A stretch of DNA of 64,000 nucleotides from a virus: UHGV virus genome UHGV-0101699; one strand, written 5' to 3'. Both the position numbers and the translations under genes were made by a program. Shown here piece after piece: positions 16,519-37,100 of this stretch. Within the stretch, counting starts at the first letter, position 1. Every line of letters begins with the position of its first letter. The notes beneath the pieces were generated by a model. That model searched no databases and was not told the DNA's origin. It saw only the letters and a list, made by a program, of their open reading frames with translations.

Positions 16519-17685
16519 ATGACTTTGTGGACTGACTCATATCAAAGTTCAATTGACTCAATCAGTAATTTTATCGACAATAATTTCACACATTATAATG
16601 AAATTCCCGAAAATTTATCTCGCCTAGATGATTCAGTGTTAGCGGATTGTATAATTGTAGTTGCATGGCGATACTTTAAAAACTTATACATTCATCGCCG
16701 AGACTCGCTTAACAAATACACTTCATATAATCAGAAATTTTTACACCAAGGCAACACCCCTAGCTTACAAGAACTAAAAGATGATAAATTTTACTTCCTA
16801 AATAAAATTCTAAGAATATTATTTGAGTACAACTTTTGGGCTTCTGATGATTTTGGCCCGCCCATGTTCTTAAGCCCTGAAATTCTAGAAAAACTGGACA
16901 AGCTAAAACCACCATCAGATTTCCAGGTTAATTTCATTTGGATCGAGCGATCTATGCCTGCGGCTTTGACAAAAGATTTATTGCTATCCGATAAATTTTC
17001 ATACTTAACCAAAATTGCAGTTGACGTAGAAAACTTCGAAAGCACCATATCTCAAAACATTGAAAATGGGCTTAAAGATGTCGAAAATAAAACGAATGAA
17101 TTAAGAGAGCAAATCAATGAACTTATACAATCTTCCAACTCGTCAATACAATCCTTAGACGAATATGATTCCAAACTAAAAGAATATAAAAGTGATTATA
17201 ATTTTGTTCTGTTGAGCAAAGCATTCTCAAGCTTACGAGAAAAAAAAAGAAGAGAATTCATGTTTAATAATTTTATCGTCTTGGTTTTTTCGCTATTTCT
17301 AACTTGTATCCCCCTGATTGCCTTAGCGAATCACATAAAAGGCTGGTATATTGTCGAATTAAACTTGAATTCGCTTGCTTATTACTTGCCGCTACTTTCA
17401 CTAGAGTTGTTAATGTTCTATTTCATGCGCCTTTATTATATTGAAGGGAAGGCTATTAAAGCTCAATTGCTTCAGATAGATCAACGCCTTAGTCTGTGTG
17501 AGTTTATACATGATTATGTTGAGACCAAAAAGAACTCTGGTGCTGAAAAGGAATCCTGGTCGCTTTTTGAGAAGTTGATTTTCAGCCCAATACAGGTTAC
17601 CTCTGAAAATATACCGTCTTTACTGGATGGTGCATCATCTATTGCCGAGTTAGCAGGAAAAGTATTGTCCAAAGATTCTAAATAG
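16519..17685 (+). CDS. AT-rich opposite-strand moron: 388-aa protein with N-terminal soluble domain, coiled-coil and two TM helices (candidate abortive-infection/exclusion or defence effector)
   Basis: very low GC versus flanks; TM segments FMFNNFIVLVFSLFLTCIPLIALA and YLPLLSLELLMFYFMRLYY; own upstream region with TCAGGGT-n7-ACCCTGA inverted repeat (16447-16467); strong terminator downstream. Confidence 0.7.
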   Translation: MTLWTDSYQSSIDSISNFIDNNFTHYNEIPENLSRLDDSVLADCIIVVAWRYFKNLYIHRRDSLNKYTSYNQKFLHQGNTPSLQELKDDKFYFLNKILRILFEYNFWASDDFGPPMFLSPEILEKLDKLKPPSDFQVNFIWIERSMPAALTKDLLLSDKFSYLTKIAVDVENFESTISQNIENGLKDVENKTNELREQINELIQSSNSSIQSLDEYDSKLKEYKSDYNFVLLSKAFSSLREKKRREFMFNNFIVLVFSLFLTCIPLIALANHIKGWYIVELNLNSLAYYLPLLSLELLMFYFMRLYYIEGKAIKAQLLQIDQRLSLCEFIHDYVETKKNSGAEKESWSLFEKLIFSPIQVTSENIPSLLDGASSIAELAGKVLSKDSK

Positions 17686-17724: not shown

Positions 17725-18849
17725 TCACGAATTAAACACTTTTATACCGAGAACCTTGCTCTGGAGCTCCAGCTGCTTAGAGTAGGGTTTTGCACGATAG
17801 TAGGCTTTGAGAATTTGTTCCTGGGTGGCCTCCCCGGGATCTAGCCCTTCTTCTCCAAGACAGGCTATTTTCACATTTAACCCTATACTGGCTAATCGTC
17901 TGGCGGCCGCCATTGTGTTTCGGATCGCTTGCTTCTCGCTATCCCACATCATGATGACGTTTCGCAGACCATCAGCCTTTAACGACAGAAACGCGCCCAG
18001 TTGGTCTTCTGCGTCTACAGTCGTGTTTCCGGACAGATGCATCCCGAACGTGCCAATGGGCTCTACGTAGTCCCGGAGCGTCTCTTCGTCGAATATGGCG
18101 CGCTTAACCCCCATGACATCGAAAGCCCCTTCACAGACGACGACGGTCTGTTTACCAACTGCGTTATGACCGTTATAGAGAAACCTCCCGGATGCCGGCA
18201 GCTGCATAGGGAAGAGATATCGGCGTTCTGCTGCGCCGGTGACGTCACGCCCCTGGAATGTCTTCATCACCCCATTCAGATCGTAAATCGGTATCAGGAT
18301 GCGCATATCGAATGCCTGCCCTTTTACCTGATCGGTATATGGGTCGACATAAGCATGTTTTCCCTCGACGCAGTAACGCAGGTCAAAATATTTGGCCAGC
18401 TCCGGGGTAATGTTCCGCTCAACAAGATAGTCCGGCAGCCGACCGTCAATTGGCAGTTCATAATGCCGCGGTAAAGCCACCGGGCCTTCAAGTTCCACAG
18501 CACTGGCCAGCACAACCTCTTCTTTTTTTGGCGCCCAACCTTGAGACAAGAGTGCGTTATGTACGTACTCCTCAAAGGCACGACGAGACTTACCGCTGTA
18601 GTGTTTGAGGAAAACCAGCTTGTTAAATTGAATTTCTTCTGGGTGATCGCCGGCGAAGCATTTCCCGACGTTGTTGGTCAGGTTGAAATAGACCTTCCAG
18701 TTTGTGCTTCCGCATACCGGACATTCTTTGATATTCACTTCGCGGCCGCGGGCGCTTACACCGCCGCGACGATAGATGATGCCTTCCATATCCAGCCATT
18801 GTTCGAAATCCAGCTCGGACAGTAACTCTTTGAGGTCACTCATTGTCAT
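17725..18849 (-). CDS. dnaG: DnaG-type DNA primase (zinc finger + TOPRIM)
   Basis: CPVCGSTNWKVYF...KCFAGDH zinc-binding motif; TOPRIM VVVCEGAFDVM; 22-codon upstream ORF (18846-18914) ends in ATGA overlap with primase start. Confidence 0.8.
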   Translation of the reverse strand: MTMSDLKELLSELDFEQWLDMEGIIYRRGGVSARGREVNIKECPVCGSTNWKVYFNLTNNVGKCFAGDHPEEIQFNKLVFLKHYSGKSRRAFEEYVHNALLSQGWAPKKEEVVLASAVELEGPVALPRHYELPIDGRLPDYLVERNITPELAKYFDLRYCVEGKHAYVDPYTDQVKGQAFDMRILIPIYDLNGVMKTFQGRDVTGAAERRYLFPMQLPASGRFLYNGHNAVGKQTVVVCEGAFDVMGVKRAIFDEETLRDYVEPIGTFGMHLSGNTTVDAEDQLGAFLSLKADGLRNVIMMWDSEKQAIRNTMAAARRLASIGLNVKIACLGEEGLDPGEATQEQILKAYYRAKPYSKQLELQSKVLGIKVFNS

Positions 18850-18995: not shown

Positions 18996-20336
18996 TTAAA
19001 GAACTTCCATGATCCGCTCGATGAAGCGCATCTGTTCGAGGTTCTGCTTAACGCGAATACTCACCCCGCCCTTCTGGTTACGAGAACCAGCAAAATAGAG
19101 TCGTGCTTCACCTTTGGCTTCTTCCTCCTCAGTCTTGTTGATAGTGATGACTAAGTCGGCAATACGGACTTTTTCGATATTGTCCGCGGCGTGCATCATA
19201 GTGGCCACTTCGGATGAGCCACCTTCACGGTTGGTCTGGGATGCCGTGATTCCTGCAACGTTGTGCTTATCGTAGAGAGCACGCAGATCGGTGTAGATAG
19301 AACGGATGTTCGCCCGGTCGTCACGGAGGTCGTAACTGGCACGCATCAAGTCCGCATAGTCGACCACCACCATATCCGGGATCATGCCATTCGCTTTCAT
19401 GCTATTGAGCATACGATCCAAATCTGCAGGCGACATGCTTCCTGACGGGCGCTCAACCACCCAGAGATTCCCCACCCCTTTCGTCGCGCCAATCTCCGCG
19501 AGTTTCCGGTGAACGTCGTCACGCTGCTCTACCAGCTTTGACATCTCCGTTTCAGACAGCCGCGCATCGAAGCGATCGGAGAGAATCGAGGTATGCACTT
19601 CGAGAGAAAGATACAAAACGTTGTAGCCGGCCAGCGTTGCGTTAATGGAAAACTCCCCCATCGCTGTCGATTTACCTGATTTCGCAAAACCCATGAAGAG
19701 CACCATCTCACGTTTCGCCCACCCTTTTTGATAGAGCATACGATCCAGCAGCGGAAGACCGGTGGTGATGCTGTTCGGCACGTAATCATCAGAGGCTTCA
19801 TATTCACGGGCCTTGTAACGTTCCGCTGCAGAGGCGAAATAGTCATAAATGCCCGTCGCTTCGTTAGAACCGATCTGCTGCACTTTGGCCATGATGGCCA
19901 TCGCTCCCTGGAAGTCGCCCTTCTCCTTCATCTCGGCCGCTTTAATCAACGCATCGTCGAACGCTACACTTTTAGCGAACGTCGCGACCTGGTCGACCAT
20001 GTAAGCCGTATCAGAGAGTTTTTCCGAGAGCACTCGCTTAAACGCCGCCACAACGTCCGGGAACATCTCTTCTCTGATCGTCTTATCGCGTTTAGCACGC
20101 TTCAACATATCGAGGATGGCCGCCGATGAAGGCGCGCTCTTATACATTCTGAAATAGCCAGATACCATGTTCACCAGTATGGCGTTCGCCGCATTGGAGA
20201 ATTGGTTGGGGGCAACCAGATCGCCGGCACGAGTCAGAAACTCATGATCGCGGCAAAAATACGCCGCCAGACGATTCTGGAAGTCGTCGTCGAACTCTTC
20301 AGACAACCCTCGTCCCGTGTGGCAAAGTTCGGTCAT
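18996..20336 (-). CDS. dnaB: DnaB-like replicative helicase
   Basis: 446 aa; Walker A GFAKSGKST in RecA-like C-terminal domain. Confidence 0.8.
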   Translation of the reverse strand: MTELCHTGRGLSEEFDDDFQNRLAAYFCRDHEFLTRAGDLVAPNQFSNAANAILVNMVSGYFRMYKSAPSSAAILDMLKRAKRDKTIREEMFPDVVAAFKRVLSEKLSDTAYMVDQVATFAKSVAFDDALIKAAEMKEKGDFQGAMAIMAKVQQIGSNEATGIYDYFASAAERYKAREYEASDDYVPNSITTGLPLLDRMLYQKGWAKREMVLFMGFAKSGKSTAMGEFSINATLAGYNVLYLSLEVHTSILSDRFDARLSETEMSKLVEQRDDVHRKLAEIGATKGVGNLWVVERPSGSMSPADLDRMLNSMKANGMIPDMVVVDYADLMRASYDLRDDRANIRSIYTDLRALYDKHNVAGITASQTNREGGSSEVATMMHAADNIEKVRIADLVITINKTEEEEAKGEARLYFAGSRNQKGGVSIRVKQNLEQMRFIERIMEVL

Positions 20337-20400: not shown

Positions 20401-21126
20401 TCAACACAGTCGCCGTGCTTCTTCCAGTTCTTCCGGGTAATGGGCATAGATAACGCGCTCAGGCACCAGCTCCATCAACCAGACAGCAGAGAAGATGGTG
20501 CGGATACGCTTATCACGGGTGATGTGCTTCAAACGCTCCAGAACCCATTCAAAGTAACGTTCCTGAATTGGGTCATGCTGCATGTCTCCTAAGTGCTTAA
20601 AACTCACTACAGAGTCATCCAGACGCGTTCCCGCACGATTGGCGAGTTTGCTTTCGAAGATCTCAATCAGTTCTGGCTGCCAAAGATGCTGAGGGCGAGG
20701 TAATTTGTCCCAGAGCCGGCGCGCAGCTGCAGAGAGAACAGTTGATATAAAATAGTCATAAGAGCAGCAATACCGATCTGCAAACTGGCGAGCTTTCCAG
20801 AGAGATGTTTTGTTCACCGCCGAAAGCTCTTGGTAAGGCAGGCGTTTCAGACCAGTGCTGAATGGCGCCGTCTCGAAATGCTCGCGGCCATGAGACAGCA
20901 TGATCTGTGAGTATGCGCGCTTATAGGCTTCGGTGAACAGACAGGTTGCCATCAGCGGGTGCATGTCGCGATAGTCAAACCACTTTGTATCAAAGAGCTC
21001 AGCCTCTCCCTGGCATCGTGAAAGACCGATGTTTTCCGCAACCCACTTGTCCATAGCGACCGTGTCCCACTCTGTCATGAAGTCGTACTGGCCGTTGTTT
21101 ATGGTATCAAAAAAGATCTGGCTCAT
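20401..21126 (-). CDS. hypothetical protein (241 aa)
   Basis: ORF. Confidence 0.5.
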   Translation of the reverse strand: MSQIFFDTINNGQYDFMTEWDTVAMDKWVAENIGLSRCQGEAELFDTKWFDYRDMHPLMATCLFTEAYKRAYSQIMLSHGREHFETAPFSTGLKRLPYQELSAVNKTSLWKARQFADRYCCSYDYFISTVLSAAARRLWDKLPRPQHLWQPELIEIFESKLANRAGTRLDDSVVSFKHLGDMQHDPIQERYFEWVLERLKHITRDKRIRTIFSAVWLMELVPERVIYAHYPEELEEARRLC

Positions 21127-21404
21127 GCCCCCACCGATAGGTAACTACTTACTTAACATTTGGCTGATCATATCGACTAGTTACTGTTTTTGGAAGTGGA
21201 AACGGAAGGGAATGTGTCTGGGAATTTGGTATAAAAAGCCTGTCTCCATATAAATAATATGTAGCTTAGTATTTATATACAAAAGCAGGCTACAAAACAG
21301 ATGCCCAGAATCACATAATTTGATTTAATTCCCAGATGCTATGTTACTGACAGAACTGACTGATTAACCAAGGCTGACCATGTTAAAATCAGCGCTTTAT
21401 CCTC

Positions 21405-22478
21405 GTGAGTATTATCAATATGCGCATGAACAAACTTCCCGGATATGGTCTTCCCGAGCTGGCTTTCTGGCCTCAGCCTAAATACGAACGAAATAATTGG
21501 TCTATGTTCTGTCTGAAACTTCGTGATGATGGAACTCTGGCTTGGTATAGGCGATATGTTGATCGAGGTATGCCAAACCTCGCCTTTGATGACGTCTACG
21601 ATAGCTATCTTGATGCAAGAAAAGCGGCGGAAGAACTAAATAAAAACATAGCTTTCAATATAGATGATCTATCTTTAACTCAGCAGCAAAGAGAATCACT
21701 ACGCTTAAAAATTGATAAGGCGCTCATCTCAAAATCGCGACTGATGGATGAGGAGCATATGATGCTAAATGAGGCCATTAGAAGACACACGAACGATCGA
21801 CGTTTGTCATCAGATGAGCTAATTATCAAACCTGAAGGGTTAATCGTACGTCCCTATCTGCTAGACATACTACACGAGATGCCTTACTTGCATTGGATTT
21901 TCCTACCCACCTTCCAGACATGTTTCAGACTAACAGAACCTAACACCTGGGAGCAAGTGCATAGCCCCAGAGCAAAATCATCCAAAATTTGCTACCAGGA
22001 ACGTATCGCCAGAGGGTTTGGTTTATCAGGCACTGCACATTGGGGCAAAACAAAAGCGACTATTCGCTCAATGCTTCTGCCACGTGCCAACCAGCTACTA
22101 CAACTCGCCAGCGTAAAAAGAATGCTGGATGAGGCTCTCCGGAATGGACGAAAAGTAATCGTCGTTGGCAGCTTTGTTTTCTGGTTCGAAGACATAAATC
22201 AGATAGGTTGGAGTGTTAAAGAAGCAAATGACAGCGAAATTACCTCAAGAGGCAATACGCTCTGGAAAGAAGGTACTATCATTTCAAAAAATCACGGTCG
22301 AATAGTCGTTCTACCGTATACAAAGGAAAACGGTGAGCATGTAAAAGGCTACACCAAGAACGCCCCCAACGACGGCAAAGCGATTCCGAGGCATAAGGAT
22401 GAGTATGTTGAGCTGCCATTTGAAATTCTGGATGGTGACTTGATGTTCAGCCTGTTCGGTGAACTTAACTACGAATAA
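21405..22478 (+). CDS. hypothetical 357-aa protein on opposite strand with own promoter region and terminator (moron)
   Basis: ORF; divergent AT-rich region 21127-21404; terminator 22497-22531. Confidence 0.65.
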   Translation: MSIINMRMNKLPGYGLPELAFWPQPKYERNNWSMFCLKLRDDGTLAWYRRYVDRGMPNLAFDDVYDSYLDARKAAEELNKNIAFNIDDLSLTQQQRESLRLKIDKALISKSRLMDEEHMMLNEAIRRHTNDRRLSSDELIIKPEGLIVRPYLLDILHEMPYLHWIFLPTFQTCFRLTEPNTWEQVHSPRAKSSKICYQERIARGFGLSGTAHWGKTKATIRSMLLPRANQLLQLASVKRMLDEALRNGRKVIVVGSFVFWFEDINQIGWSVKEANDSEITSRGNTLWKEGTIISKNHGRIVVLPYTKENGEHVKGYTKNAPNDGKAIPRHKDEYVELPFEILDGDLMFSLFGELNYE

Positions 22479-22496
22479 CTGTCATAGAACGTTGTA

Positions 22497-22531
22497 TTTC
22501 TAAGGCTGGCCTGCATAGACAGCCTTAGAAA
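22497..22531. terminator. bidirectional hairpin TTTCTAAGGCTG-n11-CAGCCTTAGAAA followed by ATTTATAT
   Basis: 12-bp stem read directly. Confidence 0.7.
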
Positions 22532-22537
22532 TTTATA

Positions 22538-22900
22538 TCAGCCTTTCTTCATCAACTCGCGCTTTATTTCGTCAGTACGCATCGTCACATCAGCAGCGGT
22601 GATCGCCTCGTTCATCTTTACGATGTCCTCTATTTCCTGCGGGGACTTCTCTGCCAGATGGAAAATGGCTGCACGTATCACATCAGAACGGGTGAACTTC
22701 TCGAAGCGAGGGATGAACTTCATCATCTCCAGTAATTCGAAATACTCGTCTTCAAGAGACATCGTGCGGCTTTTGATTTTCTCTTTGCCACGTGTTGGAC
22801 GGCCTTGTGGACGGACAGGCTGGCGCATCGGGGTGCTGCTTTTAGGTGCAGCAGCTTCCGCAGCCGGACGTTTTGCCAGATCACCCATTTTCATGGACAT
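22538..22900 (-). CDS. small partition-associated DNA-binding protein, ParG-like (disordered basic/Pro-rich tail + C-terminal RHH-like region), candidate
   Basis: 120 aa; immediately downstream of ParA with ATGA-type overlap; C-terminus SLEDEYFELLEMMKFIPRFEKFTRSDVIRAAIFHL. Confidence 0.5.
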   Translation of the reverse strand: MSMKMGDLAKRPAAEAAAPKSSTPMRQPVRPQGRPTRGKEKIKSRTMSLEDEYFELLEMMKFIPRFEKFTRSDVIRAAIFHLAEKSPQEIEDIVKMNEAITAADVTMRTDEIKRELMKKG

Positions 22901-23565
22901 TATTCACCCTCCAAGGTCATTACGTATTCTACTAATGCTTCAATCTCGGCCTCAGCCTTTTTGTCGCGCTCGGCTCCAGTCATCTCAAATATGGAACGAC
23001 CCGCCTCTTCGGCATCGTCATAGACGTTGCGGTTGTAAAGATTCACCGGTACCGCCTCAATGCCAAAGGTTTCGACAATTTCTTTTGCAGCGATAATGCG
23101 CGCAGCCTGGGAAGGCAGAGACGGGCACTGGTTCATTACAGCACGGATTTTGATTTGGTCATTCACGCTGCTAACGCTGTCGACGATGGGGTCGATGTCA
23201 CGTAAGGATTTCAGATCGCGGCGTTTCGGGCGAAGCGGGATAAGGATCACGTTGGCCATCAGCATAGCCTGGCGCTGAATTTCGGAGTCGAAACCACCAG
23301 CGTCAACGACGACGTAATCGAAACGGCCGCGAAGCGAAGTGATGTGTTTGATGATGTCATCCTGGACATAGGCGAACGGGATCAGCTCCAGTTCTTCATT
23401 GTGCCGGCGGTCTTCACACCACCCTGTCGTGGTGCGCTGGATGTCGATATCAGTGATCTGGACTTTCTTTTTCTTTTTGATTTTCAGACAGGCTGCAATT
23501 TGCTGAGCAACAGTCGATTTGCCTGGGCCACCCTTGGTGCCGCCCACCACAATGATCTGAGTCAT
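22900..23565 (-). CDS. parA: ParA/ParF-type partition ATPase (type Ib)
   Basis: 221 aa; deviant Walker A GGTKGGPGKST; VVDAGG Walker B; contains KKKKK run encoded by homopolymeric tract 23463-23481. Confidence 0.8.
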   Translation of the reverse strand: MTQIIVVGGTKGGPGKSTVAQQIAACLKIKKKKKVQITDIDIQRTTTGWCEDRRHNEELELIPFAYVQDDIIKHITSLRGRFDYVVVDAGGFDSEIQRQAMLMANVILIPLRPKRRDLKSLRDIDPIVDSVSSVNDQIKIRAVMNQCPSLPSQAARIIAAKEIVETFGIEAVPVNLYNRNVYDDAEEAGRSIFEMTGAERDKKAEAEIEALVEYVMTLEGE

Positions 23566-23600
23566 TCGTGATATCCCTACGTGTGATTTATCGTCGTATG

Positions 23601-23613
23601 AAACAACTTGTTT
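23601..23613. promoter_or_regulatory. AAACAACTTGTTT palindrome upstream of parA
   Basis: read directly. Confidence 0.6.
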
Positions 23614-23749
23614 TCTTATATGCGATATAGCCTAAATGCCTACGGCTTCGGTGTAAAGGTGAAATGGTAGGTTATGTAGATACAGATAAATAAAAAATGG
23701 AGAGATTGAAAAGCTGTGGCGAGGAGGCGGCACAAAGCCGCCTGTCGAT

Positions 23750-24499
23750 TTACTGTTCGAACCAGCCGACTGGTGTTCTTGAAGAGCGCGAGATGATTAG
23801 AACAATGAACTTTTGTACATTGATCTGCACTTTATTGGGCAACCATGAGCTCAGTTCGGGGTCGAGCAGTAGGCCACGGTTCCATGGTAAAAAACCAGTG
23901 TTCTTACCCATACCATATTCACCCAGCACGTCCTCGAACTTTTCTGTTTTGGCGTTGTAAATACGGACATCGCCGGTACGCATCAGAGGGCCAGCCCAGA
24001 TCTTGGCGCCGGGAATGGTTTGGTTGTCATCGCAAACCAAATGCTCGTACCAATGAAGAAGGAAAAGATAGGTACTGTGGCACAGTCCTCGCTGACGAAG
24101 CGCTCTGACAGTTTCAACTCCAGCTACCTGATAACTTTCAACTTCAGTGTCATTTTCAACAAAGCTATATTCACGCAGAGCTATTCTGCCTGCGATCGAA
24201 TTTTTGCTATCGTCCAAAAGCCCTGAGCGGAGCAACTCTTTGATGATTTCTTCTTCAGTAGCACCTTCATCGGCTCGATCTAGGATAAACTCGCTCAGCT
24301 GACTCTGGTCATACGCACCTACTCGCTCCATAGAGACATAAAGGCAAATGTCGTCTTCTGGGTCGATGATTTGGATTTCGGAGATTTTATAGAGAGAGGC
24401 TTCGTTGATAAGAAAGCCGAAACGAGCAACGCGAGTCTCCCCAGGGTGAGGAAACTCGCTTAGGTCTTTTGAGTATGCGCTATCTAGTGTAGGAGCCAT
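23750..24499 (-). CDS. hypothetical protein (249 aa)
   Basis: ORF. Confidence 0.5.
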   Translation of the reverse strand: MAPTLDSAYSKDLSEFPHPGETRVARFGFLINEASLYKISEIQIIDPEDDICLYVSMERVGAYDQSQLSEFILDRADEGATEEEIIKELLRSGLLDDSKNSIAGRIALREYSFVENDTEVESYQVAGVETVRALRQRGLCHSTYLFLLHWYEHLVCDDNQTIPGAKIWAGPLMRTGDVRIYNAKTEKFEDVLGEYGMGKNTGFLPWNRGLLLDPELSSWLPNKVQINVQKFIVLIISRSSRTPVGWFEQ

Positions 24500-24876
24500 T
24501 TGGTAGCAGATCTATCAGCCTTTACATGACTGTCAATGCTACCATGTCCTAATACAAAGCGGCGAATAGAATGTTCGATGACCTCAGAAAATTCTTTTAA
24601 ATCGCGCAACAGTTCCGGGTACTGCTTATCAGGTTTTACGACAAAACGAACACGGCCGTTCAGGAAGATAGCTTCCGCTAACGGTTTTACGCTGGCACGC
24701 GCCATCTCAACGTCGTCCTTAAAGGTAACGATGAAGCGTGTGTCTTTGAGCTCAACCGCGTCATTGTTGAGTTTACGGACTTCAATCTTGTGCTTAGCAA
24801 GCACGTGAGTCTCAATAACACTCGTACAATCACGGATTGTCTGTATAGAACGAGAAGCGTTCAGTGCGTTGTGCAT
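24484..24876 (-). CDS. hypothetical protein (130 aa)
   Basis: ORF overlapping previous gene start. Confidence 0.45.
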   Translation of the reverse strand: MHNALNASRSIQTIRDCTSVIETHVLAKHKIEVRKLNNDAVELKDTRFIVTFKDDVEMARASVKPLAEAIFLNGRVRFVVKPDKQYPELLRDLKEFSEVIEHSIRRFVLGHGSIDSHVKADRSATKWLLH

Positions 24877-25150
24877 GTTTCCACCTTAGCCGTTAACAAC
24901 CTAATGTCAGTGCGGCGACCCCCTGTGGGGTTTAGAGGCTACGAGTATGCGTAGCTTGAATGTGACTACACGTTATGACTGTAGTCATATCAAATCTACA
25001 TCATTAAGCAGGATCATTCAACATGAGGTTGAATGAAGCACAGTTAGATGCCGTGAATATCAAGCTCTGACGACAGATGTGAAGAAAAGAGGATACGCCA
25101 TAGTTTAGGTAGTGTAACGCAGCGTATCCTCTGAGGCGGGGCATAAAATG

Positions 25151-26666: not shown

Positions 26667-28112
26667 TTAATTTAATTGCTCACTACTCATGGCCACGCCT
26701 GTATCGAAGGTATTCTGGTTTGTATTTATGGCGTCGCCCCCTTCTGATGAGTTAATTTTATTCTCCAGCGCTTCAACTCGTTTAATCAGGACCTTCACCG
26801 CCGCCAGCGTGTCCATCATTATCACGTTGTTGTCGAGCTGAAGGCGTTCACTGTTAACCTGCTTATTACCATCCAGGTACGAAATATTAACGTGTTTCAC
26901 GTATTGCTCGTCTACTTCCTCGGCCTGCTGCGCGATGATCCCCCGGCGGACGCGGTTCTGTTCGTCGTCGTTATAGACGAACGTCACCAGCTCCAGCGCC
27001 TTTATGCGGTCTACTGACTGCTGCCCATCAGTAGGCGTGATATCGTGCTTCAGGCGAGCGTCAGACGTCCCCAGAAACTGCACGCTACCGCGCTGGCTTC
27101 CGTAGATATTGCCGTCGGCCAGGAATTGCCAATACTGTATTGGTTGCGAAAATCCACCAACAGAAAGAATTAGTCGGTGGTTTGTCCCTACCTGCTCTTC
27201 GAACCACATAGCCGCCTGTCCACCATCAACGTTGCCATCACTACCGCGCGTACTAAATCTTGACGTAAAACGTGGCGCTTGTAACACGGTGCCATTTGCT
27301 ATGTTTCCAGGGTCAGTGTTTAATCTGGCAATGAAGGCTTGCCCGTACAGATCGCCGTACTGCGTAGCAATGCCATAAACCCCGAGACCGCCACGGACTC
27401 GCAGCCCCGGATAAACCGCTAAAGCCCCGTCTTCGGTGATAATTCGATGCGTATAATCTGCAGAGCTACCTTTGTGGTGAAAATCAATGTACGGCGTTGT
27501 GTCGCTGCTGATTTCCAGGTTTCCGGCGTCGATGGCAGTGAACTGTGTATTGCTATTCTTCCTGAGAATTTGCCCTGCAGCCGTTATAGTGGCACTGAAA
27601 GTAACCCCCTTACTGAATATCTGCGTCTGTGTGAACGTGTTTGCTGCGCTCGTCTTCGCTGAATCTTTCAGTGAGTTCCTGAGTTCCGCGAGGTCAGATG
27701 CTTTCGCCATCCCAGATACAGCAGGAACAGTCACAGACGTACCTGTTATAGGGTCTGTCATCGTAATGTCGCCGCTTCCGGTCAGGGCTGTAGACCATCC
27801 TTGGACAACGTTACGCCAAAGAGTAAATGCACTGGCTAGTTGGTTCGCAAAAGACGATGTGCTGGCAGTTTCTGACGTGATAATTCCATATTTCGCACCA
27901 GAAAAAGCAGTTGTTATGTTTCTCGTCAGGGTCAGTTGAGTGTCATTATTTACTGATTTGATGGCATACAGATCAGCACTTCCATTGCGATAAATGACTA
28001 AAATTGAACCCTCTTGAATACCAAGTGCGGGCTCCGACCACTTTGTTGAAATACCAGTAACCTTTGCCTGGTTTGCTGCACCCGTTACGGTGCCAACTTC
28101 ATACATTGCCAT
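26667..28112 (-). CDS. side tail fibre with C-terminal intramolecular-chaperone (peptidase S74-like) domain
   Basis: 481 aa; C-terminal SDARLKHDITP...IKALELVTFVYND... matches S74 autoproteolytic chaperone signature (S-D-x-R-L-K). Confidence 0.75.
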   Translation of the reverse strand: MAMYEVGTVTGAANQAKVTGISTKWSEPALGIQEGSILVIYRNGSADLYAIKSVNNDTQLTLTRNITTAFSGAKYGIITSETASTSSFANQLASAFTLWRNVVQGWSTALTGSGDITMTDPITGTSVTVPAVSGMAKASDLAELRNSLKDSAKTSAANTFTQTQIFSKGVTFSATITAAGQILRKNSNTQFTAIDAGNLEISSDTTPYIDFHHKGSSADYTHRIITEDGALAVYPGLRVRGGLGVYGIATQYGDLYGQAFIARLNTDPGNIANGTVLQAPRFTSRFSTRGSDGNVDGGQAAMWFEEQVGTNHRLILSVGGFSQPIQYWQFLADGNIYGSQRGSVQFLGTSDARLKHDITPTDGQQSVDRIKALELVTFVYNDDEQNRVRRGIIAQQAEEVDEQYVKHVNISYLDGNKQVNSERLQLDNNVIMMDTLAAVKVLIKRVEALENKINSSEGGDAINTNQNTFDTGVAMSSEQLN

Positions 28113-28164: not shown

Positions 28165-31100
28165 TTAAGCCAGAGAGATGGAGCCAGTAGTTCTGTACAT
28201 CGAGACAACCCCTGTAAACCGGAACTGACCGCTATCGCCACGATTCGGCCACTGAATGGTAATCTGGTGACGTTGACCGAAGTTTGACGCCGGGATACGG
28301 ATTGAGAAGATTGATGTTTCAAAGTCCTTGCCATCGTTTCCAGAGTCAAAAGTCCAAACGGTCGTTTCATCAACGCGAATTGTTACGTTCTGACGCCATA
28401 CCTGAACAATCGCAACGGAACCATTGAACACCATACGCCGTTCAAAGGGCATACCGTCAATCGTTGCAATCAGGTAGCGCGTGCCGGATGAGGTATTCCC
28501 GGAAGCTGGCCAGTTTTTAACAACACGGTCGGTCATTGTCACAACGTCACCAACAATTTTATTGGCCTGAACAGTGCCAAGCACAGTGCAGTTCTCGTTA
28601 ATAGTCACGTTATTAAGCACACCAGTATTTGCGTGAACTTCACCACGAATAACTACGTTGTTGAACTGTGAACTACCGTCTTTTCCAATTCTCCAGCCAC
28701 TTGAACCGTTAACGAAATTGTCAGATCGGATTTCACCGCCAATTTTTGCATTGGTGATGGAGCCATCCTTAATCACAGCGGCATTCATGTAGGCAACGCC
28801 ATTTTCCACAACAAATGGTGTGGTCGTGTTTCCGTTAGAGGTATTGATTAAGCCGAAGCGATCAGCCTGAACCAGAAACTGGCTCTGCAAATTTTTGCCA
28901 TCGATACCTAAAGCGATACCAGCAGCATACTTTTTACCGTTGCTGTTGGTTTCCATTTTGACCATCCAGGTACTGTTAACGTTGCCGTTTTCGACAACCG
29001 TTTTCTTCAGCTCCTGCAGCTCGGCTGACTGGCCTCCTACCTGAGCTGTCAAATTCGTCTGCTGCTGAGACAGTGCGCTTATCGTTGTGGCCTGGGTCTG
29101 CTGAGTTGACTTAATTGCCGCCAGAGAGGTGGTGGCGTTATTCAACTCCGTCTGGTTTTTGATGTTTGCCGATGCCTGCGCGTCAATTTGCGACTGCAAG
29201 CTGGTATTCAGCGACGACTGCGTTTTCTCGTTGTTGGTGATGGTCTGCGCCATCTGATCAACCTTCGAAGACGCATCATTCACCTGGGACGTCAAAGAGG
29301 ACAGCTGAGACGCCTGGGATGTCACCTGCCCTTCTACATAGGTAACACGTGAGGTAAGGCTGGTGAGCGCGGATGCGTTCGCATTAGCCGAATCCTGTGC
29401 CTCTTTTGCGTCCGTGATATCGGTGACAACAACGTCATCGATATATAGATCATACCCCGGTGTACCAGTGCCAGTTGTGCCGCGGGTAGATACCCAAAAT
29501 GCGCCGCGAGTGTGGCCAGCGGCTACACGGAGCGTACCGGTGAATTTCTTCCATGCGCCTCTTGCACCCAATGCGGCTTCATTGATAGTGATTGCCGTCG
29601 GCCAGTTATTGTTGTTGGCAGCGTTTTGGGTCTGCAAACCAACGAGCGTTGACCACCCAGAGGATGGCGACTGATCTGCCGGCATCATCGCCCAGAGTTC
29701 AATGCGGAATACCGCATTTTCACGCAGAGCAATCCACTTACCGATGGTTTTATCGCTGTTTCCGCCCTCACCGGCGCTGCGGGAAACACGCAACGACTTC
29801 GTTCCGCTTCGTTTCTGAGAGCTGACGACGACCGCACGCGAGCCGCTGATCTGCTGGTTTTCGGAGTACGTCTCCAGAGAACCATCAAACCACGGGTTGC
29901 TCCCCATCGCCTGAACAGTGCTCAAAGAGTTTTTGAGCGAAGTTGTCTGGCTGCTCTGGGTTTCAATTTCTTTCTCGTTCTGCGTGACGCGGTTCGTTAA
30001 TGCCGTTAACGCAGCTGCATCCGCTTTCTTCGAAACATTTGTGTTTGTGGTCGCAAGGTCATTCTTAAGTTGCGTAACCTGGCTGCCCTGGCTGGTGATG
30101 TCATTCTCTGTCTTGGTCACACGACTATCGAGTTTAGTGATCGCGCTCGAGTTCGCCTGAGTTTCAACAGAGTCGGTCACATCGACGACATAAAAATCAT
30201 CAAAGTACATCGCGCCTGCGGACAAGAAAGCAGTGAACTGAACGTCAGCAACGACATCCTTTGTCGCCTTCCAGGTCCAGGACACTTCCTGCCAGTTCGA
30301 AGTGAACGGGCCATAAGCCTTACTTGCGATTAGACCGTTACCTTCTGCCACACGGAATTTTGTGTTGTCAGTCGACTGAATGGTGGTATTAGGGTCCTGC
30401 TTTGCCCAGATGCCAATTTTGTACGACCGATCCTTTTTGAAGGAGATCTTCTGGCCCACGCCTGCAGAACCACCCGCCGCCAGTTTGGCGGCTTTGGTGC
30501 CAAGATGTGGAACCTGCAGCGTTACCACCGTGGCAATCCCGCTCCAGCCTGTATAGCCCTCCGTACCACGCTCAAAAGACGGGTTTACGATCAGGTTCCC
30601 GGGGATCTGGCTTGCTGCATCCACGCTGGCGTTACTGGACGCAAGGCTGTTTTCCAGTGCCGTTGTCGAGGAGCTCAGGGAGTCAATATTATCCCCCTGG
30701 GTCTTCACTGTGTTCTGGAGCGTGGTAATTGCCGACGCGTTCGCATCAGCCTTCATCATCACACCGCCGGCGGCGCCCAGTCCCATCATTACCCCGTTCA
30801 CAAACTCGACTGAGGTCGAGATGTGGGCGGTGCCGTCGCCACCGGTTGGCGCACGCAGTTCCAGACCATCGCCAGGCTTCATGCCTTTGCGGCCAAGGAG
30901 AATGTAGGCACCACGATACGGTAGAGAGTTGACGACTTCGGATGTGCCACCAAGAGATTCCAGGGCAGACAATACTTTACCTCGGTTGCCAGTTGGCTCA
31001 TCGAATGTCAGGACACAAACGTAAGTCCCACTGGCCAGTGCCTCGATATCAGCCGACATCGTGGCACCATTATTCGCGCTGCCAAAGACATCGTATGTTT

Positions 31101-34100
31101 TGGATGTCGCAATCACCGTTGATCCGTCGCTGTGTTTTGCAAAAGTGACCAGCGCCCAGCTGCGACCAGGGGTAAACAGGTTTTTGCCGCTTTCATCAAA
31201 AACCCCAGGAGTTACGCTGTTGCCATTCCCCCGTGCAGTGACAGTAAACACAGTGCGACGGTTCATCGAGGCCTGCAGGCTGGTAATGCTACTGTTCGCC
31301 GCGGTTAAATCGCCCCCCTGAGATGTCACCGTGTTCCGGAGATCCTGCAATGCAGAAGCATCAGCTTTCTTGGCAATATTGTTCTGAGCTGTCGACAGCC
31401 CGTTCTCCAACGATGTGGTGCGATTTCCGATAGAGCTAATGGAAGTGCCTTGCTGATTCACTTTCGTTGTCAGCGAATCCACAGCCGACGCACTGGCGCT
31501 ATCAGACGGAGACTCGTTCCAGTCGGAAACAACGTTACCTACCTCAAACTTCGGACTGTTGATGTACACCGTCTGGTCTTTGGAGGTATTGCTCTCGATA
31601 CGGCACAGAATCAGGCGCTTGGTGCCCGTGGTAGGTGTCTGTTTCCACTTAACCCAATAGCGGGCCCATGAAGTGGTCAGCGTGAACTGCGCACGACCAT
31701 CAGTGTTGTTACCTTTCGCACCCTGGCTGGTCTCGATAGACGTTGTGGTGTTCGGATTGTAGAAGAACGCCGTCATCGTCTGGCCAGTAACGCCGCCTTT
31801 CGCATAGAAGCTGTAAACGTACTCACCTGCATCGACCGGCGACTCAAGCGTGATTTCCCGCAGATCCTTGTAACCGGAGCCGGCTTTTACAGTTGCGCCA
31901 ATTACCGCATTACCACGATACGTATCGCTGACAACGTTCGACCAGCCGGTCATATCGCCGGAGTTCTTGATCAGGTTTGTACCGCCGACAGAAATTGCAT
32001 CAACCTTGTTGTTCAGATTCGTGACAGAAGAACTCGTTGAGTTAATGTCTTTTTCGGTCTGGGTAACACGGTTGGTCAGTGCCGTCAGAGCATTTGCGTC
32101 CGCTTTTTGAGCAACGTTTGCATTTGTTGTTCTCAAATTGTTCTCAAGATTGGTAGTGCGTGTACCAATACTTAAGATGTTCTCCCCCTGCTGATTTACC
32201 GTAGAGGTCAGCGAATCAACCGCTTTCGCCGTGGCGTCGAGGGAATCCTGGACTTTGGAGGAGTCGGTTACGTTCCGCAGATGCCAGTCAGTCACATACC
32301 AGACGGTGCCGAATGGGCTGGACTGGTTAATTTGCAGGAATGGACGGAAGAAGCCGCGATCGACAATCCCCTGAGTAATTTTGAATCGCCAGGTTACTCG
32401 CTGCCATGTGGCCGACGCCTTGCGGTTGCCGCCGGATGACAGAGGCGCGCCCACGCTGCCGCTTGGCCTTGTTGCGGTTCCGAGATACAGGTTGAAATCA
32501 GCGGAGCCGGTACCACACGCGACGAGAGCAGACATTTCATAGACATCCCCCAATGTCGCCGGAATAGCAGCAAAATTTGGGTGATGGTCGCGAGCCGCAA
32601 TGCGTGCGACATAAGCGTATGGGCAATTGGCTGGCACGCCCTCAGACGAGCTGGAAACCACAGTGAAGCCCATCTGACTAAACTCTGGGTCAAATGTCGG
32701 GTTGCTAATCAAATCGCCACTTGTCGCATTCCCTGCGCGTACAGATGAATTAAGCGCAGTGATACTGCTATTCGCAGAGGATAAGCCCGACTCTGTTTGA
32801 TCGACGCGCCCGGACAACACGCTTAAAGCGCTCTGATCCGCTTTTTTACTGACGTTGTTATTGGTCGTTGCCAGGTCATTTGTCAGTTTGGTGATGCTGT
32901 TACCCTGACTGGTGATCTGGTCACCCTGTTGGGAGACGGTCGAGTCCAGTGTCGAAATCGCATTGGCGTTAGCATCTGCTGTACTTTGCGCATTGTAGGC
33001 ATCAGTTACTTCGGTAATGACCAGGTCATCAATGAGGAATGAGTTTCCCGCCTTAACGCTGCTAACGTTAGGAATAGAAATCCTCACCATTGCCTGCTTA
33101 ATACCGCTCTTCGTTGATTTCAGGTAACCAGAAACCTTCGTCCATTGAGTTGAAGAGAGATCCTTTGCCGCTTTGGTAACTGCCGGCCACTGCCAGGAGT
33201 TGTCCTGATACTGGAGCGACAAACCGATAGAGATCTGTGCATTCTCGGCCATAGCGGTACTCTTGGCATCCCGCTTAACCCAGCATTCCATATAGAAGAC
33301 TGCGTTATCGCGTACCTGGAAACCGCTGAAAATGTGATTATCGCTGTTATCAGTTGCGTTAGCGTTGTAATCATTCGGACGCGTCACACGGATGCACTTA
33401 TTACCGCCATGCGAGTCATCAGTGGTCACGATAACGCGATTATTTGATAGATTGTGGCCAACCGCGTAGCTTTCAAAAGTGCCATCAGGAAGCAGATTAG
33501 CGCCGCGTTTGGATTGCTGGTTCAGAGAGCTGCTGAGCGACGTAATGTTGCTGTTCGCCGCCGTCAGACCGGACTCCGTCTTCTCTACCCGACCTGTCAG
33601 CGTAGTGACTGCCGACTGATCGGCCTTTTTCGCGATGTTTGCGTCAGCGGCTTCGAGGTCATTGGTCAACTTAGTGATGCTGTTGCCCTGGCTGGTGATT
33701 TTGTCACCCTGCTGTGTCACCGTGCTCGACAACGTAGACAGCGCATCGCTATTAGCCTTGATCTTCACCTCATCCGTGATATCAAAGACCTTAAATGTAT
33801 CAACCCAGATTTCGGCATTAGCCGGGTGCGCGTAAAGCTTAAAGTTCTGGCCATCAGCGTTAGAGGCAGTAAGTCCAGTCTCCCAGGTAATGGTCTGCCA
33901 CTCACTGGTTAGTGTGACGTTTTTATCTTCATAATTGCTGTCGGTCTGGCCGATTTTATTCTGGCGCCGGATCAACATGTTCATCGCCCCGGACACGCCC
34001 TTGGCTTTAACCACAACACGATATTTGCGCTGACCATTAAGCGGCAGCGGCTTGTTGTTGTTGGAGAAGATGCCTGGGCTGGTAGTGGTCGTCCGGTTCA

Positions 34101-37100
34101 GCTTAACCCCAGCCTTACCATCACCGAAGTTGCCGAAAGTGACGCCTGCCGGATACTGGGTATCCCACGCAGTTGCACCCTGCAGGAAATCGTAGTTCGG
34201 GATCAGGTTGTCACCGGCGTTTCTGGCAGCGGTCAGGGTGTTATTCAGGTTCGTGATGCTGTTACCCTGGCTGGAAATCGTATCCCCCTGCTTGGAGACC
34301 GTATTTTGCAGCGTAGACAGCGCCTGTGCATCTGCCTTATTCGCCAGATTAGCGTTGGTCTGTTCGAGGCTATTTCGCAGGTCAGTAACGCTCTGTGAGG
34401 TGCTCGTGACGCGATCACCTACGGTGCTGACGTTTGAGGTGACGGCGCTAATGGCATTCGAAAGCGCGTTCATCCCAAGAGCAGAATTCAGCTGGGCTAC
34501 CTTCTCGGACAGTTTAAAACCGAGGTTAATGTAAGCCTGACCAGTCCATTGGTTCACCAGGAACTCAACCGTGCTCCAGCCAGCTTTCAGATCAAAGCTA
34601 ACCGTATTCCAGCTCGCATTACCAAAGGCAACCCTAACACCGTTCACGTACACGGCGCCCGTATCATCAAAAACACGAGAACCTGGTGCCATAGTGATGG
34701 TGGTATCAGCATTGACTTTCACGAAGGCTTTGTAATGCGCGATCACGTAACTGCCGGCGCTCGCAAAGTCCAGTTTTGCCGCGTCAGGAACCTCATCGAT
34801 CGAGATTGGCGCCTTACCGTTGATATCGCTAAAGGTCGGCTCAGTGGTATTGTTCGCCAGTTGTACGTTGTATACGCTACGCACCCACATGTTCTGGCGG
34901 CCGTTAACCATCTGGTTTGACAGCGAAGTGATGCTGTTGGAGTTCGACGTAATGTCTTTTCCCTGCTGGGTCACGGTGCTGTTGAGGGTTGATAACGCAT
35001 TGGACGTCGCATCAATCGCTTTCTCATTGCTCACGTCAACGCAGAAGACGTCATCGAGATACATATAGCCGGAAGCGACACTTGCGCGCAGAGACACAAC
35101 CACGCTGGCGGTTTTGGCTGGCGTATACTCGCCGCTAATAAGTGCCCAGTTAGTCGACAGCCCGGCGCCGGTGATCGGGATATCCTTTAACGGCGTCAGA
35201 TCTGCGTTTCGAAGGCTAATCTTGTTGTTGCCGGCATTATTGATCGCGAAGTCAGCGGATTTGCGAACCCATGCGCCGATACGATAAGTCTTGCCAGCCT
35301 GCAGCTCGACCGTTTGATTGCAGCCTGAGTCACCGCCAGAGGCCAGTTTACCCGCCTGGATGATGTATTTCCCCGATTTGGGGTTTTGGGCCTCCAGCAG
35401 AGTCCAACCAACATACTCCCAACCTTCGAAACCACGTTCAAAAGAGTTGTTTTTGAGCATGTTGCCGATGATCGCTTTCGAGGCATCCGCATCAGCATTG
35501 GCGTTATCCAGCGAGTTTGACAGGCTGGTGATGCTCTGGGACTGGCTGGAGATCTGATTTTCGGCAGCAGTTACGCGGTTTGTCAGATTAGTCACAGCTG
35601 AGGCGTCGGCTTTGTTCTTGATGCTGTTCTGCATCGAAGTGATCTGCTGCCCTTGGCTGGTAATGGTGCCCTCAACAGACGATACCCGAGAGGTCAGAGC
35701 ATTGGTGGCACTGGCGTTCGCCTCAATCGCCAGGGCATCAGTGACGTCAACAAAACCAACATCATCGAAGTACTGGGAACCGGTTTTGAGAGAAGACATG
35801 ATCGATACGTCAACTTTACCGGTCAGCGTCGCCTTCCAGGTATCAGAGACCTCTTTCCATGTTTCATCTTTGGGCAGATTCTCCGGACGGATCGGAATCT
35901 CTTTGAGCAACGTGGCTGCGCCAATACGCAGTTTGTTGTTGCCAGGGCTGCTGATTACCGCATCCGTGGTGCAGCGCACAAAAGAGGACAGCTTGTATGT
36001 CCGCCCTTCGACGACGCTTACAGATTGCGTGATTTGCACCGTGCCAGCGGCGCAAACAAGAATTTTACTACCAGAATGGGGCGCACTCGCCTTGATAATA
36101 CTGGATACGCTGTTCCCTGCAGACCACCCTGCCAGGTCACGCTCAAAGGAGGCGTTAACCAGCAAATTGCTCGGATTGCTTTTGGCAGTATCGGTATCGC
36201 TCTGGATATCGCTCAGCGAGTTATTCAGGGTGGTGATGCTTTCACTCTGGCTGCTAAGGGTTTTATCCTGCTGGGTTACGGTCGACTGCAGACCCGTGAT
36301 CGCCTTGCTATTCGCAGACACACCAGACTCAACACTTCCTACGCGATTGTCCAGCGTAGACAATGCCGCACCTTGTGATTTAAGGGTGTTGCCCTGCTCT
36401 TCAACCTTCTGGGAAATTGTCTGTACTGCACTGGCATCGGCCTTCTGGCCAAGGCTTGTTTGCAACCCGGTAATCTTGCTTGCCTGGGAAGCTTGTTCAG
36501 TGGACAGCGTATGCAGCTCTTCTGCAACAGAGGCTTTGTTTCTGTTGAATTCAGTCTGCAGGGATTCACGCGCACTCGCTTCCGCAGCATCGGCAGTGAT
36601 ACGAGCATTTTTCTCCTGATAGATCAGACCGGAGCGAATGTCGTCCAGATTTCCGCTTTCAGATGAACCGCGGATTTGTGCAGCCAATGTGCTGCGCGCC
36701 TGCGCTTCGGCGGTATCTGCATTCGCACGAGCCTGCTGCTCTTCCTGTAACGCGGCCATGCCTGCGCCCGGCGTCGGTCGACCAACGGCGATCCAGTCGA
36801 ATAACAGGTAATTGTCCGCATCCTGACCCGAAGTGAAATCGAAGCGGAAACGACGAATCGTTGTCGAATCCCGCCACTCAATGTCGTGCAGGGTCAGAAT
36901 CGCAATACCCTTGTCGTCGTATTCCGGCTCATTGATAACCACGGAGCGACCAGCATTCCAGCCAGTTTCATCAGCGCCGATCCAGAACATTCTGGCGTTC
37001 CAGGTTGGGTTGCCAACCTTTTTAACGCGCATCTTAATGAAACGATAAGCATGGGCATCGATCGTCAATCCGTTAGGGGAACGACAGGTTGAGGTCGGAT

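Follow-up and report, generated by a model that had tools for sequence, protein, structure and literature searches.

Cargo genes in hotspots of phages and phage-plasmids are well known, as are many orphan defence candidates. Clinical Klebsiella, Escherichia coli, Shigella sonnei and Salmonella Typhi commonly harbour SSU5-like phage-plasmids, which are usually deemed cryptic. The closest described counterparts of the locus reported here are the morons and hotspots of temperate phages, including lambdoid phages and P2/P4 (old/tin/fun and gop-beta-cII), with which it shares a single opposite-strand gene with its own upstream region and a 3' hairpin, a lower GC content, and presence in some but replacement in other near-identical genomes, with breakpoints that are fixed and lie between conserved modules. 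We found this arrangement in a stretch of 64,000 nucleotides of the UHGV virus genome UHGV-0101699 (the window), which is an SSU5-like phage-plasmid of Klebsiella, around an uncharacterised plus-strand open reading frame (ORF) here called the cargo gene. Unlike known moron hotspots, the slot separates the replication module of an SSU5-like phage-plasmid from its partition module, and expression in the lysogen is something we infer. From anatomy and polymorphism, the locus is established as a slot with several alleles that here holds an insulated accessory cassette (moron), while for the product of the cassette we see about even chances of a single-protein defence against phages or other mobile elements, or of a superinfection-exclusion factor.

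Among described defence systems, the nearest comparison is with DUF2971. Aristaios, a DUF2971 protein, has been experimentally shown to be a single-gene antiphage system (PMC11381338). Genes of the PDC-S31/DUF2971 group (Aristaios-type abortive infection, ADP-ribosyltransferase-like) are alternative occupants of the exact same slot, likewise form single-gene units of approximately 250-330 amino acids (aa) in defence islands, and adjoin homologues of the cargo gene in Bradyrhizobium, Vibrio and Salmonella plasmids. However, the cargo protein has neither sequence nor fold similarity to DUF2971 and no transferase motif, and the DUF2971 genes of the slot lie on the minus strand, apparently co-transcribed with the par operon, whereas the cargo gene occupies the plus strand and is insulated. 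The system found most often directly next to the homologues is Gabija (GajA/GajB), but the cargo protein is homologous to neither GajA nor GajB, and identity with the MazF-like GajC of type II Gabija (PMC13069673) was rejected. A further comparison is offered by GAPS1-13, candidates from Gamma-Mobile-Trio (GMT) islands (Mahata et al., 10.1101/2023.03.28.534373): the homologue in Pseudomonas capeferrum is cargo of a GMT-like island, in which an integrase is followed by a 1127-aa and a 228-aa gene, and GAPS2 is likewise a domain-less single protein. Identity of the cargo family with GAPS2, 3, 5 and 7-13 was rejected because the construct N-terminal sequences do not match; it was likewise rejected for GAPS1 and GAPS4, which are PD-(D/E)xK proteins, and for GAPS6, a TPR/PIN pair.

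The 3.3 kb around the cargo ORF are 99% identical to the Klebsiella phages/phage-plasmids vB_KpnS_p4727 and GArcari-2022a/b and approximately 81% identical to Salmonella phage SSU5, and the ORF content of the window (CobS/CobT-like genes, recombinase, PhoH, DNA ligase, primase, DnaB-like helicase, ParA, and tail genes including an S74 tail fibre) fits an SSU5-like phage-plasmid. The preliminary description of this locus had reported a plus-strand ORF from a GTG at 21405 to 22478 within a minus-strand region, and such an ORF is indeed present, with the replication genes on one side and the parA operon on the other, both on the minus strand, as are all large neighbours. Alignment by blastn revealed that backbone homology to plasmid pJN2-26 (97%), SSU5 (81%) and phage Cyrano (77-79%) ends at 21289-21291 and restarts at 22535, three bases ahead of the stop codon of the convergent 120-aa gene. 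These breakpoints therefore delimit the cassette (Table 1), which consists of 128 bp of upstream sequence, the ORF and a 56-bp tail containing a hairpin. GC content ranges from 0.37 to 0.47 over 21150-22500, below that of the flanks (0.49-0.55).

Other genes take the place of this cassette in closely related backbones. Despite flanks of 97% identity, pJN2-26 holds different genes in the gap: in this plasmid and in SSU5 the slot is filled by three minus-strand genes, one of them a DUF2971 gene and two of them small, in Cyrano by a 267-aa gene, in other Klebsiella plasmids by a 572-aa P-loop nucleoside triphosphatase (NTPase), and in Salmonella pHCM2-like plasmids by the cargo gene together with a DUF2971 gene. 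Counting a PLSDB plasmid as a carrier if at least 80% of the query was covered, the cassette was found in 142 of 784 backbone-positive plasmids (~18%). The expectation of presence/absence polymorphism at this position was thus borne out; universal conservation in synteny with the backbone and a housekeeping annotation, which would have spoken against a moron, were not found, and the replacements are unrelated. Together with the linkage of the hairpin to the gene and the lower GC content, this swappable slot supports the moron cassette proposed earlier.

The same cassette occupies the same slot in plasmids of E. coli/Shigella, Salmonella/Citrobacter and Cronobacter, with cargo protein identities of 79%, 70% and 65%, respectively, so that protein divergence roughly equals backbone divergence; the E. 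coli/Shigella version preserves the layout at 78.7% DNA identity across all 3.3 kb. The cassette, found in this slot in several genera at backbone-like divergence, is thus an old recurrent allele exchanged via the conserved flanks rather than a recent insertion.

The cargo ORF is under purifying selection and is a real gene, as follows from a ratio of nonsynonymous to synonymous substitution rates (dN/dS) of 0.15 against the E. coli orthologue (0.08 in the C-terminal half, about 0.17-0.22 in the N-terminal half) and of 0.16 against the Salmonella plasmid orthologue. Its length needs a small correction from the 357 aa first given. The family phrog_22329 aligns end to end with residues 6-357 of the GTG-started ORF, and since this family and all ~120 listed homologues begin at M6 (MRMNKLPGY..., general form MR[ML]...), the start is most likely ATG 21420, giving a protein of 352 aa, and GTG 21405 is an unlikely start. 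An Rfam scan gave sub-threshold chance matches only, among them a fluoride riboswitch match inside the ORF (21541-21605, plus strand) which was judged to be chance at 18.6 bits against a gathering score of 34.

Upstream of the gene, the reported 278-bp divergent region is AT-rich as described (GC 0.37-0.43 against 0.49-0.55 in the flanks), but its extent was revised: the spacer 5' of ATG 21420 measures 293 bp, its left 165 bp (21127-21291) are conserved backbone, and only the remainder is specific to the cassette. Within this part, an extended -10-like element, TGTTAAAAT at 21381-21389, is kept in the Klebsiella, E. coli and Salmonella versions, and the cargo gene may on the strength of this conservation have its own promoter; a weak Shine-Dalgarno-like GTGAG lies at approximately 21405-21409. 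Downstream of the gene, the 12-bp-stem bidirectional terminator claimed at 22497-22531 turned out to be a perfect 13-bp inverted repeat (22496-22508/22520-22532) with an 11-nt loop, whose stem has a GC-rich core of 5 bp, extended by 8 AT-rich base pairs. Folded as RNA, it reaches a free energy (dG) of -19.5 kcal/mol on the plus strand (z -3.4) and -20.1 kcal/mol on the minus strand (z -3.2). The hairpin is kept in the Klebsiella, E. coli and Salmonella versions, in the last with three compensatory pair changes (A-T to G-C, T-A to A-T and T-A to G-C), and is under selection. In Salmonella pHCM2-like plasmids it lies between the cargo gene and the DUF2971 gene; since it stays with the cargo gene there, it belongs to the cassette. 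While a terminator or insulator is probable, the 'strong bidirectional terminator' of the preliminary description is a matter of interpretation, as a clean U-run is missing and a consensus terminator scan did not call the hairpin. The left border of the slot is formed by a backbone hairpin kept in all lineages compared, which looks like a terminator ending par-operon and slot minus-strand transcripts before the promoter of the dnaB operon.

The occupants of the slot point to defence. The slot genes of SSU5 and Cyrano match PADLOC model PDC-S31/DUF2971 (2e-33 and 3e-41), and the 572-aa P-loop NTPase matches PDC-S49 (3e-24). The SSU5-like plasmid p2 of Klebsiella strain Kp1604 was reported to lower phage plating 10- to 100-fold and to reduce plasmid uptake (PMC8969562). 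The cargo protein itself had no match in PADLOC 2.0 at E<=1, and DefenseFinder 1.3 reported no defence system in pHCM2-like plasmids (10.1101/2025.09.12.675607), which carry the cargo gene; the family is therefore absent from defence catalogues. Searches of the available literature found no description of the slot between replication and partition genes as a hotspot, and searches by accession numbers found nothing.

Relatives of the cargo protein are rare. Among 1.84 billion cluster representatives searched exhaustively with a profile, only 141 were found to belong here, and relatives were located at 88 loci among 185,579 species-representative genomes, spanning Gamma-, Beta- and Alphaproteobacteria as well as single metagenome-assembled genomes of Bacteroidota and Chlorobiaceae. 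This is a rare, patchy family, as expected of horizontally moving cargo. At the loci inspected, the homologue was always a lone gene without a conserved partner; its neighbours change, and it sits amid defence genes or at the end of a prophage or island. Mokosh type I was found near the homologue in Enterobacter, PDC-M68B in Janthinobacterium, a defence-type dCTP deaminase in Shewanella, IetAS and DUF2971 genes in Bradyrhizobium, HipA-like and AAA_13 genes in Rhodopseudomonas, the beta protein of gop-beta-cII in Pseudomonas, and caspase and TIR genes in the GMT-like island of P. capeferrum. In Vibrio splendidus, the homologue is located between CBASS and an HEPN_Toprim_N gene, while in Vibrio parahaemolyticus full-length Gabija replaces CBASS at the same place. 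In both Vibrio species, it is the same 428-aa HEPN_Toprim_N gene that lies 3' of the homologue (L004 9174-10460, L017 9178-10464), and this gene had no PADLOC match.

In Pseudomonas too, full-length Gabija directly adjoins the homologue, in four species as a subtype (GajA of ~530 aa and a short GajB of ~340-365 aa) that occurs in both gene orders. In these and in V. parahaemolyticus, Gabija and homologue are spaced by 41-140 bp and often share a strand (L008 5376-9071; L047 7370-11053; L048 7212-11017; L064 5230-9122; L017 4158-9056). This adjacency is commoner than we would expect for two unrelated island genes. Such arrangements, including the standard Gabija of V. parahaemolyticus, would also fit a counter-defence protein, or one that assists or regulates an adjacent immune system, for example a mobile Gabija modulator, and anti-defence genes are carried by phage-plasmids too (10.1101/2025.09.12.675607). 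Nevertheless, we regard this explanation as unlikely. The obligate co-occurrence with GajA and GajB that would mark a third Gabija component is not seen, Gabija being missing from the window and from most homologue loci. Moreover, the system upstream of the homologue is swapped between CBASS and Gabija in Vibrio while the homologue stays, and positions in chromosomal defence islands and lysogeny operons are atypical for anti-defence genes.

The homologues adjoin an integrase at prophage or island ends in Salmonella and Aeromonas; in Aliamphritea, an SRA-HNH gene was found beside a prophage integrase; and in a P2-like Vibrio phage the homologue is co-oriented behind a repressor, an AAA_21 ATPase and an integrase. 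Moron positions at prophage ends are also those of lysogenic-conversion factors, which would act on the host or its environment (fitness, virulence) rather than on phages; one Salmonella homologue lies between an integrase and an LRR-NEL effector gene, and virulence is altered by a Klebsiella SSU5-like plasmid (PMC8969562). However, the plasmid with this virulence phenotype lacks the cargo gene, domain searches found no secretion-associated domain in the cargo protein, the neighbours of the homologues are overwhelmingly defence genes, and soil and marine carriers among Pseudomonas, Bradyrhizobium, Vibrio and Sphingomonas have no host niche in common, which leaves a conversion factor with little probability.

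Such slots often house addiction systems, and Cyrano has a KacAT toxin-antitoxin pair in the next slot; par and rep modules adjoin the cargo gene here and its homologue on a Pantoea plasmid. A selfish stabilisation or competition module, toxin-like or acting by exclusion, could thus favour plasmid retention or block rival plasmids with no anti-phage role at all. We consider such a module rather improbable, as neither a partner antitoxin gene nor a conserved adjacent small ORF or RNA was present at the loci inspected, and as the homologues are frequently carried on chromosomes, where stabilising a plasmid has no relevance. A backbone role as a helper in phage-plasmid replication or partition, for which the location between dnaB/primase and parAB and a basic helix pair at residues 206-245 might be cited, is highly improbable and effectively ruled out by the polymorphism described above, namely carriage by a minority of backbone-positive plasmids, unrelated replacements in near-identical backbones and homologues in unrelated chromosomal contexts.

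A defence or exclusion function is best supported because of the neighbours of the gene, the defence-candidate genes that replace it as alleles of the slot, and a protein whose N-terminal half varies while its C-terminal half is conserved. The preliminary description had recognised no motif in the protein, and our searches agree: no Pfam or NCBIfam match was obtained, PHROGs gave the unannotated phrog_22329 only, and a PDB sequence search with three profiles returned nothing below E 0.04, with spurious matches only. A first AlphaFold2 (AF2) model built from 32 sequences left the C-terminus unmodelled (predicted local distance difference test score, pLDDT, below 50 there), and a second, built from 127 sequences with distant relatives among them, reached a mean pLDDT of 84.6 and a predicted template modelling score of 0.78. 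With both models, Foldseek found no match against PDB at E<=0.001, and with the first model none against the viral structure library BFVD at the same threshold; a match to a WGR domain (probability 0.04) was discarded. In the model, residues 1-75 are predicted to form a beta-meander plus helix, 88-122 a 35-residue helix, 138-200 an alpha/beta unit, 208-241 a basic helix pair (isoelectric point 11.8), and 246-336 a beta-rich C-terminal domain. An internal repeat was not detected by hhalign.

Among distant gammaproteobacterial homologues, identity amounts to 31-36% in the N-terminal half and 62-71% in the C-terminal half, and W282, S289, N291, P299, G310, T312 and R324 are invariant across the 127 sequences. 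None of these C-terminal residues is acidic or a histidine, which argues against a metal-dependent nuclease or hydrolase, and a binding module would fit better; as no nuclease, NTPase or transferase signature was found either, the C-terminal part probably acts by binding rather than by catalysis. Some distant relatives retain only the approximately 90-aa C-terminal module behind unrelated N-termini, for example long helical stretches or a zinc ribbon with a coiled coil. This beta-rich module, common to several architectures, follows the pattern W..G.I.S.N.G...P....DG..V.GYT+N.....A.PR. The distant members, one of them with a weak DUF6613 match, offered no informative domain fusion, a word-indexed search with the C-terminal module gave fragments only, and the contigs of the distant architectures P0177 and P0239 were too short to inform on context. 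An apparent 'EEP nuclease' fusion in Sinorhizobium was rejected: on pSmeAK21b of Sinorhizobium meliloti (L026 4001-4159), a 53-aa C-terminal remnant with 53% identity is located just 3' of an EEP-family gene and 5' of an 'ABC-three component system', and resembles a degenerated copy within a further conflict island.

For the cargo gene we propose the following mode of action, in which expression, the defence role and the division into sensor and effector are what we infer. The ORF is accessory cargo in a slot, exchangeable by recombination, between the replication and partition modules, and the slot would serve as a defence-gene hotspot. The cassette may be a stand-alone transcription unit comprising an upstream region of its own, a single gene and a conserved 3' hairpin, likewise its own, that would separate it from the convergent par operon, a layout that would fit expression in the plasmid-prophage (lysogen) state. 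The fast-diverging N-terminal half (1-185), with beta-meander and helix domains joined by the long helix, might serve in sensing and specificity, and the strongly conserved C-terminal half (186-352), with the basic helix pair and the beta-rich module, in output, probably through binding of nucleic acid or a conserved cellular (host) factor rather than through catalysis.

Several observations weigh against this proposal. No homology linking the protein to a function emerged from Pfam, NCBIfam, PADLOC, PDB or Foldseek, and the antiphage phenotype of p2 (CP085480) cannot be credited to the cargo gene, since p2 carries a DUF2971 allele and lacks the cargo gene. On a Pantoea plasmid, the homologue is found beside umuDC and parM, a setting that is not defence-specific. 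The neighbourhood evidence is guilt by association: clustering in defence islands was observed qualitatively, with no formal, matched control set, and in a pooled PADLOC scan of two ORFs on either side at 37 loci (147 proteins), with LmuB, mad3, DRT helicase, AriA, GajA, GajB and Old as top families, the counts are an upper bound on independent systems because the PADLOC ATPase models cross-hit. As for the stand-alone transcription unit, the TGTTAAAAT motif is no more frequent than expected by chance, leaving the promoter without statistical support; a sigma-70 scan found nothing in the cassette-specific upstream region, and the 3' hairpin has no canonical U-tract on either strand, being followed by UUUAUAU on the plus strand and by no U-run on the minus strand. 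On balance, context and relatives suggest a new single-gene anti-phage defence. A more far-reaching reading, namely an unrecognised single-protein anti-phage family with a fold without PDB relative and an output module without recognisable enzymatic site, and a slot between replication and partition genes that is a dedicated exchange point of defence alleles in clinical Enterobacteriaceae, falls somewhat short of an even chance in our view and is put forward tentatively.

Table 1 Features of the cargo cassette and its surroundings in the window.
Feature	Coordinates	Strand	Basis
Cargo ORF, 352 aa, phrog_22329, uncharacterised family	21420-22478 (including stop codon)	plus	homologue starts, dN/dS
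Exchangeable cassette, the variable slot content here	21292-22534	unstranded	blastn breakpoints against pJN2-26, SSU5 and Cyrano
Cassette-specific upstream region with -10-like and weak Shine-Dalgarno-like motifs	21292-21419	plus	lineage comparison
13-bp-stem hairpin, facing the stop codon of the convergent 120-aa gene	22496-22532	unstranded	inverted repeat, folding, covariation
Hairpin of the backbone at the left border of the slot, AGCCTG...(AT palindrome)...CAGGCT with a U-run behind it	21230-21291	minus	dG -16 kcal/mol, z -2.2
Spacer 5' of phrog_2500/dnaB/primase, conserved backbone	21127-21229	minus	
Left-flank conserved backbone gene, 241 aa, phrog_2500, function unassigned, upstream of DnaB	20401-21126	minus	
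DnaB	18996-20336	minus	
Primase	17725-18849	minus	
120-aa gene, phrog_5111, beside ParA, right flank	22538-22900	minus	
ParA, right flank	22900-23565	minus	

The phrog_2500/dnaB/primase operon presumably has its promoter region in the spacer to the left of the slot. On the right, the 120-aa gene and the end of parA share one base. By its position this gene resembles a partner of ParA (centromere-binding protein); its sole match was a weak one to the ribbon-helix-helix-type aCcr1 model (E 2e-4), and its counterpart in phage Cyrano is annotated as 'RelE/ParE putative toxin'.

A second plus-strand gene within the minus-strand region (16519-17685, 388 aa, phrog_9373) has a very low GC content of 0.31-0.39 and weak matches of coiled-coil type only (Sec20, ZorA, Rad50); pJN2-26 and SSU5 have an annotated ORF, seen in part, at its position (1167 and 966 bp, respectively). 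In SSU5, pJN2-26 and Cyrano, homologous lysis genes lie beyond parA, and the block between parA and the lysis genes (approximately 23566-25000 in the window; L001 7112-8268, L002 7279-7836, L003 6313-7147) is likewise variable and looks like a second hotspot. It contains the KacAT-type toxin-antitoxin pair in Cyrano, one plus-strand gene of 558 bp in pJN2-26, two minus-strand genes in SSU5, and minus-strand genes of 249 and 130 aa in the window. Further along, the minus-strand interval 28165-40341 consists of a single ORF of 4058 aa, unusually big for a siphovirus-like element, which adjoins the tail-fibre gene with its S74 chaperone domain (26667-28112).

The cargo gene represents a clean candidate for a new defence family, comprising a single gene of 352 aa with a confident AF2 model and no known fold. 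The family, widely but sparsely distributed, is conserved from Klebsiella to Bradyrhizobium; its effector logic shows nothing obviously enzymatic, and it would be cheap to test. Should the slot between replication and partition genes prove to be a defence locus with exchangeable content, it would be a simple place to seek new immune genes and would help to explain the altered phage sensitivity of plasmid carriers, which bears on phage therapy of Klebsiella.

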